Source of the DNA: Escherichia coli
GTDB taxonomy: Bacteria; Pseudomonadota; Gammaproteobacteria; Enterobacterales; Enterobacteriaceae
Direction: 5' to 3' (one strand)
Length of the DNA: 64,000 bases
NCBI RefSeq assembly: GCF_030013595.1
Contig: NZ_CP122768.1
Each line of letters starts with the position of its first letter. The stretch's first letter is position 1. Below, piece by piece: positions 47,524-51,694 of the stretch. The notes beneath the pieces are model-generated. The model was not told the origin of the DNA. It worked only from the letters and a program-made list of their open reading frames with translations, and did no database searches. Position numbers and translations under genes: made by a program.

Positions 47524-48633
<1,110 letters not shown>

Positions 48634-48695
48634 TGGGCGGTATTCTGAAACGGCGATTGTCGTGAGAACAAAATGGTTGCACCAGAATACAGATA

Positions 48696-48733
48696 TAAAA
48701 AAACCGACATGACAGTCGGTTTTTTTATTTTTT
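48696..48733 (+). terminator. Rho-independent terminator after mnmH
   Basis: aaaaaaaccgacatgacagtcggtttttttatttttt; a degenerate second copy lies at 49174-49203. Confidence 0.6.
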
Positions 48734-49044
48734 CCGCCCAAGACTTGGTGGTTCCGGGCAGAAATGAAACAGTCCTCATCTAGCAAGTGAATTATAAGTC
48801 AGGATGCCTACATATTCAAACAGCTATGTTGGCGATACAATCCCGACGCTAGTAGTGATACTGCCTCAAGGGATTACCGCAGTGCGGAAAAGTACTTTTA
48901 AGTCCTGGTCAGGATACAGGTGGTGCTGATTCTGGTGCTCTAATTTGGAGAGAGGCAGTCCTCATCTAGCACATGAAGAAAATCATAGTTACAGGCAACG
49001 TAAGGGTAAGCTGTGATTGTCTTTCTCCCTTAAGGGAGCAACGG

Positions 49045-49128
49045 ATGAAAACTTTTCTCGATAAAGTTCTCATCGTTCTTAAGGCGCTAATCGCGCTGCT
49101 GGAACTGATCCGTCAGTTTATTGAATAA
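49045..49128 (+). CDS. Candidate small protein, 27 aa amphipathic peptide (MKTFLDKVLIVLKALIALLELIRQFIE)
   Basis: AAGGGAG SD 6 nt upstream; SD lies in the palindrome ctccc-ttaa-gggag; strong hairpin aaggccgaagg...ccttcggcctt downstream; not in the ORF track because it is under 60 aa. Confidence 0.35.
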   Translation: MKTFLDKVLIVLKALIALLELIRQFIE

Positions 49129-49231
49129 CTGAGGAAACGTAGCTAAGGCCGAAGGTTTACCACCTTCGGCCTTTAAAAAAACCGACATGACAGTTGGTTT
49201 CATATTTATTGCCAAAATGCACACTGTTCAT

Positions 49232-49330
49232 GCCAGATGCGGCGTAAACGCCTTATCCGGCCTACACAATCTTGCAAAATCAATATATTGCACGCTCTTC
49301 GTAGGCCTGATAAGCGTAGCGCATCAGGCA
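49232..49330. repeat. REP/BIME palindromic elements
   Basis: gccagatgcggcgtaaacgccttatccggcc and aggcctgataagcgtagcgcatcaggc. Confidence 0.55.
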
Positions 49331-49345
49331 ATCTAACACCTGTCA

Positions 49346-51694
49346 TCACCCCGCAAACTGCCTGAACAGCGCCTTACCCTTAACCAGTCGCGCGCCCAGC
49401 CAGCCGCCGCAAAGCGACAGCAGCAGCGCACCGCTGCACGGCAGAACAATCCACAATCGCCAGTCTGGCTCCCACGGAAAATCAAACACTTTCGCCTGCA
49501 ACACTGCCAGCGCCGTTTCCGCACCAATTGCGGCCACCAGGCCAGAAACAAACCCGAGCATGGCGAACTCACACCACAACGTGGTACGCAGCAGTTTTTT
49601 CCCCGCACCGAGTGTGCGCCACACCACCAGCTCCTGATGACGCTGACGCATTCCCACCTGCACCTGTGCCAGCAACAGCAACATACCGCAGGCGGTGACC
49701 AGCACCACCATCACCTCCAGCGCCCGACTTACCTGCTCCAGCACCTGACCGACCTGTTTTAAAATCGCGCCAATGTCTAACAGGCTAATGGTAGGGAACT
49801 GGCGGTTGAGTTGCGTCAACATGCCGTTGCCATTCTCCCAGCGGAAACTGGTAAGCCAGCTCTGCGGTTGCCCGTCTAATGCCCCTTCCGGGAAAATAAA
49901 ATAGAAATTAGGCCGCAGACTTTCCCAGTCCACTTTGCGCAGGCTGGTCACTTTAGCGCGGAACTCCTGGGTATCGCCCATAAAGGTGACTGTATCGCCG
50001 AGGCCAACGTTTAAGCGTTTCGCCAGCCCCTCTTCCATCGACACTTCATCGGCTTTTGGCGGCCAGTTACCGGCGACAATCGGATTATGATCGGGCCGCG
50101 TATTTTGCCAGGTAAGATTAAGTTCGCGATTGAGCGCCTCATCTTCATTGCCTTCTGTCGGCTTGCCGTTAATCGCCGTCAGTCTCGCCCGCACCACCGG
50201 ATAAAATGATTCCGGGACTATCTGATGTTCCGCGAGGAACGCTTTTAGCGGTGCTACCTGTTCTGTGGCGATGTTGATTAAAAAGTAGTTCGGGCTTTCT
50301 GGCGGTAGCTGCTGTTGCCAGCGGTCGAGCAGATCGCCACGCAATACCAGCAACAGCGCCAGCAGCATAAAGGAGAGCGAAAATGCCGAAAGCTGGCTTA
50401 ACGTTGACCACGGCTGACGTAACAGGCGGCTAACCGCCAGGCGCAGAGGCAGCGATTTCAGCGTCATGCGGCGAAGTACATTCAGCAGCATGCTGCCACC
50501 CATTAATCCGGCGAGCAGCACCACAACCACCACACTGACAATCGGCAGATAAAACTTCAGCGGCCAGACGTTCGCTACCACATCATTACGTAATACGCGT
50601 AAAGGCTGCGTTGCCAGCAACAAGCGGTATGGTCGTAGCCCCACCAGCAGCGAGATAACCGTCATGGTGCCCAGCGCCCATAGCCACGGCCAGAGGCTGG
50701 CTGGCGGTAGTGCAGCAGGCAGAACGGGCTTGAGCAGCACCATCAACACGTTTTCGAACAACAGGCCTATCGCCCCGCCGGTAACGGCTGAAAGCGCCAG
50801 CACCATCAACCACTGACCGACGATTAGCTTACGCAGTTGCGCTCGCCCTGCCCCCAGCGTTTTGAGGATCGCCACCAGATCGTAGCGACTGCGACAGTAA
50901 TGATTCATCGCCACCGCCACCGCTGCCACTGCCAGCAGCAAGGTCAGAAGCGCCGAAAGCAGCAGGAACTGTTGCGAGCGTTCCATCGAGCGCCCCAGCG
51001 CGCCTTCGTCCTGTTCCAGACCGTACCAGCGTTGTTCGGGTTTAAGCTGGGGTAACAACCATTTCTCATAGCCGTCGAGCTGGTTCTCGTTGCCGCCGAA
51101 TTTATAGCGCCAGGTGACCCGACTTCCCGGCTGCACGGCTCCGGTTTTATCGACATCCGCCAGATTCATCATCAGACGCGGAGCCATCTGGAAGGGGTTA
51201 AAACCGGAATCCGGTTCCTGAATCACTTCTCCGGCAATCCGCAAGGTGGCATCACCCACGTCGATGGTGTCGCCTGTTTTCAGGTTAAGCAGTGCCATCA
51301 GGCGTGGGGCCAGCAATACGCTGCCCGCCTGCGGTTTCAGGCCAGGGGGATTAGTTTGCAGATCGCCATACATCGGGTAGATATCATCCACCGCTTTGAC
51401 GTTCGCCAGCTGCGGTGTGTCGCCTGCAAATGTCATGGTGGCGAAAGTCAGCTGCTTGCCGACTTTCAGGCCGCGCTTTTGCGCTTCCTCCAGCCACGCT
51501 TGCGGCACTTCGCGCGAACTGCGCAACGCCCGATCGCCCGCCATAAACTCCCGGCTTTGCTGGCTTAAGCCCTTCTCCATGCGATCGCTGATATTGCCCA
51601 GCGCCAGCACGCAGGCCACCGCCAGGCTTAGCGCCAGCCAGACAATTAATAGCGACGGCGAGCGCCATTCGCGCCAGAACCAACGTGCAATCAT
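49346..51694 (-). CDS. ybbP: ABC transporter permease YbbP (FtsX-like)
   Basis: 782 aa multi-pass membrane protein; 4-nt overlap with ybbA. Confidence 0.9.
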   Translation of the reverse strand: MIARWFWREWRSPSLLIVWLALSLAVACVLALGNISDRMEKGLSQQSREFMAGDRALRSSREVPQAWLEEAQKRGLKVGKQLTFATMTFAGDTPQLANVKAVDDIYPMYGDLQTNPPGLKPQAGSVLLAPRLMALLNLKTGDTIDVGDATLRIAGEVIQEPDSGFNPFQMAPRLMMNLADVDKTGAVQPGSRVTWRYKFGGNENQLDGYEKWLLPQLKPEQRWYGLEQDEGALGRSMERSQQFLLLSALLTLLLAVAAVAVAMNHYCRSRYDLVAILKTLGAGRAQLRKLIVGQWLMVLALSAVTGGAIGLLFENVLMVLLKPVLPAALPPASLWPWLWALGTMTVISLLVGLRPYRLLLATQPLRVLRNDVVANVWPLKFYLPIVSVVVVVLLAGLMGGSMLLNVLRRMTLKSLPLRLAVSRLLRQPWSTLSQLSAFSLSFMLLALLLVLRGDLLDRWQQQLPPESPNYFLINIATEQVAPLKAFLAEHQIVPESFYPVVRARLTAINGKPTEGNEDEALNRELNLTWQNTRPDHNPIVAGNWPPKADEVSMEEGLAKRLNVGLGDTVTFMGDTQEFRAKVTSLRKVDWESLRPNFYFIFPEGALDGQPQSWLTSFRWENGNGMLTQLNRQFPTISLLDIGAILKQVGQVLEQVSRALEVMVVLVTACGMLLLLAQVQVGMRQRHQELVVWRTLGAGKKLLRTTLWCEFAMLGFVSGLVAAIGAETALAVLQAKVFDFPWEPDWRLWIVLPCSGALLLSLCGGWLGARLVKGKALFRQFAG

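Follow-up and report, generated by a model that had tools for sequence, protein, structure and literature searches.

The 27-codon gene that begins at position 49045 of the window (the whole stretch of 64,000 nt of Escherichia coli DNA that was analysed) very probably belongs to a complete type I toxin–antitoxin module on the chromosome, which is a dinQ-like (dql) member of the DinQ/AgrB family and is present as an accessory second copy. With a gene for a 27-aa toxin and an sRNA gene of its own, the module is a member of an already described and already annotated family, characterised in 2013 and 2016 (PMC3567139, PMC5066626), and does not represent a new kind of system. We found no study in the literature on the dinQ-like copy located on the chromosome between mnmH and ybbP. 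A sequence-only reading of this DNA had singled out the ORF as encoding a type I toxin-like small peptide, the translation of which is gated by a hairpin over the Shine-Dalgarno (SD) sequence; homology supports this proposal, and the peptide passes the DinQ protein model. The same reading did not recognise a named E. coli gene here, but the gene is called DinQ in RefSeq, and the name given in the literature to such copies is dql. The ORF feature goes far beyond chance, as homology to a known family extends over the entire module. The module and its parts are located as follows.

48647–49217, no strand assigned: the whole accessory module, a 571-bp indel relative to strains with an empty site, delimited by alignment with strains N39 and D8
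48695–48728, both strands: 14-bp bidirectional terminator hairpin, serving the sRNA (minus) and mnmH (plus)
48695–48783, minus strand: AgrB-family antisense sRNA gene including its terminator, the predicted antitoxin (Rfam RF02891)
48791–48819, minus strand: sigma-70 promoter of the sRNA, TTGAAT, 17-nt spacer, TATAAT (10 of 12 consensus positions)
48836–48841, plus strand: predicted −10 box of the toxin mRNA, TACAAT, which aligns with the −10 of K-12 dinQ and of nine other modules
48848–49176, plus strand: predicted toxin mRNA, its 5′ end placed by alignment with the +1 of K-12 dinQ and its 3′ end at the hairpin
48848–48867, plus strand: element 1, the 5′ “lock”, predicted to hold element 2 and the sRNA target paired as long as the mRNA is full-length
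48946–48970, plus strand: sRNA target site, complementary to the 5′ end of the sRNA and containing element 2 (48947–48960)
49015–49029, plus strand: element 3, the anti-SD, predicted to pair with element 2 (open) or with the SD (closed)
49032–49038, plus strand: Shine-Dalgarno sequence AAGGGAG, of which GGGAG (49034–49038) is element 4
49045–49128, plus strand: toxin ORF of the DinQ family, dql type, 27 aa and stop (NCBIfam model, RefSeq CDS, pN/pS)
49145–49173, plus strand: 12-bp hairpin with which the toxin mRNA is predicted to end (inverted repeat, fold), conserved in position in 11 of 11 modules
49174–49213, plus strand: degenerate second copy, 83% identical, of the 40 nt with which the sRNA terminator region begins (direct repeat D1, spacing 478 nt)

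A query of 701 nt around the ORF is 100% identical to the genome of E. coli HCP5S3_I2, and in the RefSeq record of that strain a CDS occupies this position between mnmH and ybbP under the description “dinQ: damage-inducible type I toxin DinQ”. The exact 27-aa peptide and a 51-aa extended version of its frame are both filed under the DinQ name in public databases. When compared by lower-stringency blastn with the canonical dinQ locus, for which the copy between arsR and gorA of the K-12 derivative J53 served as the reference, positions 48900–49154 show about 69% DNA identity over some 250 nt, covering the 5′ UTR and the ORF.

The translation of 49045–49128 is MKTFLDKVLIVLKALIALLELIRQFIE. Direct inspection confirmed that the SD sequence lies 6 nt in front of the ATG (49045–49047), with CAACGG as the spacer. 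The peptide scores 40.9 bits against the NCBIfam equivalog model NF041472 (toxin_DinQ; cut-off 30, E = 1.8e-10), residues 5–26 being covered, while it stays below the cut-off of the DqlB model NF041473 (24.5 bits versus 35). Pfam PF28061, listed as DinQ in the gene tables for related loci, is found in P0002, which represents the peptide's cluster at 90%. The amphipathic character earlier ascribed to the peptide is borne out by a helical hydrophobic moment of 0.43, a value matched by 1.7% of shuffles of the same residues. In length and helical amphipathicity, the peptide would suit a small inner-membrane peptide of the DinQ kind; with seven charged residues out of 27, however, and no more than 6 uncharged ones in a row (12 in DinQ), a simple single-pass membrane topology is less obvious. 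By homology with dinQ and plasmid-borne dqlB, its expected action is insertion into the inner membrane or disturbance of it.

Conservation of the reading frame, which the sequence-only reading had put forward as a check on its proposal, is evident: the 27-codon frame gives pN/pS values of 0.16–0.37 in comparison with seven distant homologues, a sign of purifying selection. The column of the start codon (ATG or GTG) is conserved among the modules compared, and the upstream in-frame extension, which is open over 51 aa in the window, runs into a stop after 12–14 codons in each of the seven remaining modules of dql type; upstream of K-12 dinQ, 23 codons of the frame are free of stops. The pN/pS values, the conserved start column and the closure of the extension in the dql-type relatives together identify the 27-aa product as the conserved one. 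Variants of the 51-aa frame within E. coli are 94–98% identical, too alike to reveal the start codon, so that the distant homologues decided the matter.

According to a protein search with the 51-aa extended frame as the query, the closest relatives of the peptide have RQFI[DE] as their C-terminus and come from Salmonella, Yersiniaceae, Enterobacter and Klebsiella; beyond E. coli, the distribution is that of protein matches. For comparison at the nucleotide level, we assembled a set of 11 modules consisting of the window locus, K-12 dinQ, loci of the relatives and two plasmid-borne dqlB loci. Five of these loci (L003, L004, L012, L014 and L015) are situated in transfer regions of conjugative elements or plasmids; two (L007 and L008) occur among uncharacterised genes on contigs of about 36 kb, which may also be mobile elements, and two others (L005 and L006) are on the Yersiniaceae chromosome. 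All relatives align with the window from the sRNA terminator through to the 3′ hairpin, and all 10 other modules examined have an AgrB match above threshold at the same relative position.

In the window, the AgrB family (RF02891) is matched over the full model (1–84); the score of 53.6 bits exceeds the gathering threshold, which is 40 (E = 9.8e-8), and the predicted sRNA folds with −33.9 kcal/mol (z = −4.9). The sRNA gene is divergent from the ORF and does not overlap with it; it is located 260 nt upstream, and its start lies 65 nt from the predicted start of the toxin mRNA. Its promoter is the only sigma-70-like promoter that a promoter scan found in 48600–49350, and 7 nt separate its end from position 1 of the Rfam model, implying a transcription start at around 48783. 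The sequence-only reading had suggested a search for an antisense sRNA on the strand opposite the ORF; there, no promoter was detected on the minus strand within 49045–49350 and no cis-antisense RNA was found. The predicted antitoxin is a trans-acting sRNA of the AgrB type, encoded divergently upstream of the region that had attracted attention at first. This sRNA gene is unannotated in the RefSeq record examined, and the module therefore looks like an orphan toxin there. Further Rfam matches over the A/T-rich terminator (STnc370, RNAI, rimP leader and mir-509) were below threshold and taken as noise.

The sRNA is complementary to the 5′ UTR of the predicted toxin mRNA. Its nucleotides 1–24 pair with 48946–48970 by 23 paired nt at −34.4 kcal/mol, G·U pairs being allowed. 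For a seed of 30 nt, the predicted energy is −39.3 kcal/mol, as compared to −21.5 ± 2.7 for shuffled 30-mers, the best of which reached −31.9; the genuine seed beats all 300 shuffles. At the DNA level, this complementarity leaves a trace in the form of a 22-nt direct repeat (D2; 48770–48791 and 48956–48977). In a matrix of 12 × 11 combinations, the cognate sRNA–mRNA pairing is the best one in each of the 11 modules (−34 to −46 kcal/mol), whereas most of the non-cognate pairings range between −12 and −30 kcal/mol. Between the two E. coli systems, the sRNA from the mnmH–ybbP locus is predicted to pair with dinQ at −28.1 kcal/mol (agrA, which does not repress dinQ experimentally, gives −27.8 with the same target), and K-12 agrB with the toxin mRNA of the mnmH–ybbP locus at −19.5 kcal/mol. 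These two predicted values are much weaker than those for cognate pairing, −34.4 and −40.6 kcal/mol, and such weak predicted cross-pairing suggests that the two DinQ-type systems may be insulated from each other.

The toxin mRNA of K-12 is known to be controlled by a switch of four elements. In full-length dinQ mRNA, element 1 is paired with element 2, and elements 3 and 4 form a hairpin over the SD; when the first 43 nt are lost, element 2 pairs with element 3 and the SD opens, until agrB binds over element 2 and the hairpin closes again (PMC5066626). That hairpin 3:4 blocks translation has been shown experimentally (PMC5066626). To locate the corresponding elements in the window, the +1 of K-12 dinQ was placed at position 1153 of L002 using the published element coordinates, in which the SD GGAG is G184–G187 (PMC5066626).

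The palindrome around the SD was described correctly from the sequence alone: CTCCC (49025–49029), TTAA (49030–49033) and GGGAG (49034–49038) form a perfect 5-bp inverted repeat. Folded in isolation, this hairpin is weak (−7.0 kcal/mol, z = −1.6), with 14 of 200 shuffles folding equally well; unconvincing by itself, it derives its weight from the homology with hairpin 3:4 of dinQ, which it matches column for column. By analogy, the anti-SD half may well occlude the ribosome-binding site, as had been suggested, and the hairpin would be one state, the closed one, of a more extensive switch in the 5′ UTR, predicted to span 48848–49038.

In the predicted fold of the full-length RNA, 48848–48867 is paired with 48952–48970 and the CUCCC/GGGAG hairpin is closed (pairings 1:2 and 3:4). 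The pairs of element 1 in the minimum free energy (MFE) structure are 48848–48852 with 48966–48970, 48855–48858 with 48962–48965 and 48860–48867 with 48952–48959. Once the RNA is truncated at its 5′ side to a start between 48875 and 48945, the MFE structure pairs 48947–48960 with 49015–49028 (2:3). All three mutually exclusive pairings (1:2, 2:3 and 3:4) are present in these folds, a computational kind of evidence. The probability for the SD to be unpaired increases from 0.01 in the full-length RNA to about 0.2 after 5′ truncation, the SD finding other partners in several truncated forms. The same calculation for the experimentally characterised dinQ RNAs of K-12 resulted in probabilities of 0.05 (RNA from +1) and 0.21 (from +44); since these RNAs give the same result, the modest opening of the SD reflects a limitation of the method rather than a difference of the locus.

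Covariation across the 11 modules was counted for the helices that could be aligned by column; element 1 is too variable in length for such a count, and only the 5-bp helix formed by the mRNA 5′ end with the target was included. In helix 2:3, 94.9% of the cells are paired, as compared to 45–67% in shifted registers, and at one position both sides have changed, from UA to CG twice and from UA to AU in the window. The 5-bp end helix is complete in each of the 11 modules (100%); its sole compensatory change, UA to CG, is unique to the window locus (GCUAG/CUAGC versus GUUAG/CUAAC), and the 5′ end of the window sRNA has changed in step (CUAG from UUAG). Hairpin 3:4 and the 5′-end helix taken together are paired for 94.1% across modules. 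The 11 sequences are related, the changes that are independent are few, and the shuffle controls (44/500 and 141/500) were not decisive; the counts are consistent with the published model of the dinQ switch.

By homology with dinQ and the plasmid-borne dqlB, we propose the following working for the mnmH–ybbP module. The toxin mRNA would start near 48848 from an ordinary sigma-70 promoter without a LexA box; this promoter has a good −10 box (TACAAT) but no recognisable −35, and was absent from the output of the promoter scan over 48600–49350. In the full-length transcript, element 1 would lie on 48952–48970 and tie up element 2 and the sRNA target, and element 3 (CUCCC), left free, would close the hairpin over the SD (GGGAG), by which the primary transcript would be translationally silent. 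Upon removal of the 5′ end, element 2 (GGAGAGAGGCAGUC) would become free to pair with element 3 (GAUUGUCUUUCUCC), the SD would open and the 27-aa peptide could be made. The AgrB-like sRNA (from 48783 to 48695) would then pair, through its single-stranded 5′ end, with 48946–48970 and displace element 2, upon which the SD hairpin would form again, the sRNA–mRNA duplex probably being cut by RNase III.

A hairpin with an 11-bp stem had also been reported downstream of the ORF; the hairpin is there, but its stem is 12 bp long (49145–49156 with 49162–49173). It folds with −20.7 kcal/mol (z = −5.6) and none of 200 shuffles is as stable. It has no U-tract: the sequence that comes next is TAAAAAAA. A conserved motif, GGA(A/G)ACGTA, precedes this hairpin and reads GGAAACGTA in 10 of the 11 modules. 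Downstream, a weaker second hairpin with a T-rich tail (49179–49200) occurs; the hairpin of the degenerate terminator copy, at −8.5 kcal/mol, is weak, and this copy at the end of the module is possibly the remnant of a tandem array.

The mnmH–ybbP spacer is devoid of the module in strains N39 and D8, and in the K-12 lineage an rhsD element resides between ybbP and mnmH. The module is present at mnmH–ybbP in about 1317 out of 5426 complete E. coli genomes (approximately 24%), and the canonical dinQ at arsR–gor in 5422 of the same 5426. It always occurs in addition to the core arsR–gor dinQ: every carrier record among those listed in a distant-mode search shows a second match. Near-identical copies of the module were sought on true plasmids and none was found; relatives of 60–90% identity are carried by some 1660 plasmids, most of them conjugative.

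What the module does for its host could be viewed differently, namely that the peptide is a regulated membrane-active one with a physiological role, for instance in tuning membrane potential or nucleoid state, and that the sRNA is its translational repressor. The 2013 study describes DinQ as modulating membrane-dependent activities (PMC3567139); the window peptide is more amphipathic and more charged than DinQ, and in E. coli the module is chromosomal and untied to a mobile element. The close relatives, however, are found in conjugative elements and plasmids, where the related DqlB is an addiction toxin, and we consider a physiological role rather unlikely. It would be compatible with the molecular mechanism proposed above and differs from the toxin–antitoxin reading in the biological role alone.

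It is improbable that the locus is a decaying, non-functional toxin–antitoxin relic, kept in some lineages by mere hitch-hiking. Its accessory status, with some 24% of the genomes carrying it, would agree with decay, as would the toxin promoter without a clear −35 and the degenerate duplicate of the terminator at the 3′ edge. In strain CB6886, moreover, an internal deletion of 110 bp has removed the SD and the start codon, and other records match the module in two pieces with about 80% covered, which may be deletions of the same kind; the loss of the gene start in some strains means that the toxin is dispensable. Against a relic speak the intact state of the ORF, the SD, the sRNA promoter, the sRNA structure and the complementarity, the 1313 records with an identity of 99% or more across the 486 nt of the module, the low pN/pS against distant homologues, and the locus's own compensatory changes by which the RNA pairings are preserved.

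That the module is a dinQ orthologue or duplicate under SOS control, expressed once DNA damage has led to the cleavage of LexA, is suggested by its RefSeq name and by the match to the DinQ equivalog model but is more improbable still, given that no CTGT-N8-ACAG with at most one mismatch occurs anywhere in 48700–49050, that the LexA box of K-12, CTGTATGATTATCCAG, aligns with unrelated sequence in the window and in nine other dql-type modules, that the site is mnmH–ybbP and not arsR–gor, and that the carriers hold the canonical copy as well. For want of a LexA box, the “damage-inducible” label in RefSeq is unsupported and probably wrong for the mnmH–ybbP copy.

The reading that we prefer, a complete toxin–antitoxin module of the dql type next to the core dinQ, could be extended to a second DinQ-type system that is insulated and independent of the SOS response. 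Such a system would have no cross-regulation by sRNA and a promoter input other than LexA; its peptide, with a lysine amid the hydrophobic face, would act on the membrane in another way than the single-pass DinQ, and its site, with three states (empty, module or rhsD), would exchange competing selfish or contact-dependent toxin cassettes. We advance this combination tentatively, as something possible for which the balance is not yet in favour. The known working of the DinQ/AgrB family is unchanged by the mnmH–ybbP copy. As about a quarter of E. coli strains have two DinQ-type systems, work in non-K-12 strains on dinQ phenotypes, among them persistence, membrane depolarisation and recombination, should consider the second copy.

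Type I systems also include zorO–orzO of E. coli O157:H7, in which the mRNA of a small toxin has a long 5′ UTR that is processed and pairs with a divergently encoded, trans-acting sRNA, as is proposed for the mnmH–ybbP module. Membership of the Zor/Orz group was considered in view of a resemblance of the peptide and a weak OrzO-P match, and was rejected on the scores: the match to the OrzO-P model RF02083, which lies over the terminator and on the plus strand, reaches 25.3 bits where the threshold is 60 (E = 0.29). The models that the peptide matches are those of DinQ, not ZorO. One paper reports zor-like 5′ UTR matches upstream of dinQ ORFs on plasmids.

The module has much in common with dinQ–agrA/agrB of K-12. 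Both specify a 27-aa peptide with the shared core DK..IVL.ALIALLELIR, both include a four-element switch with an SD hairpin and a divergent AgrB-type sRNA directed at the 5′ UTR ahead of the ribosome-binding site, and both conserve the GGAAACGTA motif and the 3′ hairpin. K-12 dinQ resides at arsR–gor and has two AgrB matches, agrA and agrB, whereas the mnmH–ybbP module has one sRNA gene. The start codon is ATG in the window and GTG in dinQ, and the SD hairpin is CUCCC/GGGAG (5 bp, loop UUAA) where dinQ has CUCCAU/AUGGAG. In comparison with DinQ, the window peptide is three residues longer at the N-terminus and three shorter at the C-terminus (RQFIE versus RFLLQLLN), has K13 in the place of G10, in the middle of the hydrophobic stretch, and features seven charged residues instead of four and a hydrophobic moment of 0.43 instead of 0.20.

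With dqlB–agrB, found on pOXA-48 and other conjugative plasmids, the module shares its architecture and the proposed repression by base pairing. For that system, genetic work of 2025 demonstrated toxicity and its rescue by agrB and included compensatory mutations (PMC12365149), and the plasmid-borne DqlB acts in post-segregational killing (PMC12365149). DqlB is a peptide of 31 aa with a different N-terminal half (MINLLIIVLRAV...) and is encoded on plasmids; the window locus is chromosomal. Antisense RNAs for dql loci were predicted in T1TAdb in 2021 (PMC8594479). In the 2016 study, dql genes are described as chromosomal and plasmid-borne homologues of dinQ that have sigma-70 promoters and SD sequences, conserve the elements of the 5′ UTR and sometimes co-occur with dinQ in one strain; that study deals with 14 Dql sequences, dqlA and dqlB, in Enterobacteriaceae (PMC5066626). 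The mnmH–ybbP locus fits this description of dql by Kristiansen et al. (2016).

The spacer between mnmH and ybbP, compared here with the loci L009, L010 and L016, occurs in three states in E. coli genomes: empty (140-240 bp), occupied by the 571-bp DinQ-like toxin-antitoxin module, or occupied by rhsD, the K-12-type element of roughly 7.3 kb. Of 45 records taken as a spread sample, about 11 had the module, about 5 an empty spacer and about 28 a split one. The features considered here are as follows, in window coordinates.

48634-49345, mnmH–ybbP spacer
48696-48735 and 49174-49213, 40-nt direct repeat, 83% identical
49131-49139, motif GGAAACGTA, just 3′ of the toxin stop codon
49226-49308, REP-type palindromic elements, between the module and ybbP
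49346-51694, minus strand, ybbP

One E. coli strain, CB6886 (L011), carries the same module with an internal deletion of 110 bp, equivalent to window positions 48957-49066 and lying between AGTCCTCATC and AGTTCTCATC, which are near-repeats of each other. It takes out the sRNA target, the SD sequence, the start codon and the first seven codons of the toxin ORF and leaves the AgrB-like sRNA gene intact (53.6 bits with the Rfam model). With the toxin start removed and the sRNA gene retained, the CB6886 module is, as judged from its sequence, a toxin-dead, antitoxin-only variant. Further records (H34, H120, H121), in which the module was matched as two pieces over some 80% of its length, may have the same deletion.

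The downstream copy of the 40-nt repeat is a degenerate second version of the terminator sequence shared by the sRNA gene and mnmH, located within the indel and directly 3′ of the toxin 3′ hairpin. The repeat may be left over from an earlier tandem arrangement of sRNA and toxin genes, or from the recombination by which the module was inserted. The neighbouring REP-type elements, which are the reason why each genome yields tens of megablast matches, fell short of the Rfam thresholds for naRNA4 (36.6 bits against 59.5) and ES036/CssrF (35.0 bits against 37.6). Beyond them, ybbP specifies 782 amino acids, compared with 804 in strain HCP5S3_I2: 22 codons (around residues 402-423) are missing in frame, and there is a single amino-acid difference besides. 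The absent stretch, MLLWAVLAGAVVLALLCGVLGW, is hydrophobic, and YbbP, a putative ABC permease, may have lost a transmembrane segment.

In the alignment of 11 DinQ-type modules (A5, columns ~350-360), GGAAACGTA is near-invariant amidst variable flanking sequence, the sole exception being GGAGACGTA in the Klebsiella aerogenes locus L015. In predicted folds, positions 49138-49144, near the motif, pair with the SD/spacer region (49037-49043); one possible reading of GGAAACGTA is as a conserved 3′ element in the toxin mRNA.

The closest relatives of the toxin outside E. coli are found in Salmonella and Enterobacter (L003, L004 and L014) and in K. aerogenes (L015), each accompanied by an AgrB-like sRNA of its own. 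All four loci lie inside conjugative transfer regions, either between RAQPRD/DUF3262/DUF2976 and DtrJ-like/TraG genes or adjoining traY–traM, which suggests that the chromosomal E. coli copy derives from a mobile-element addiction module.
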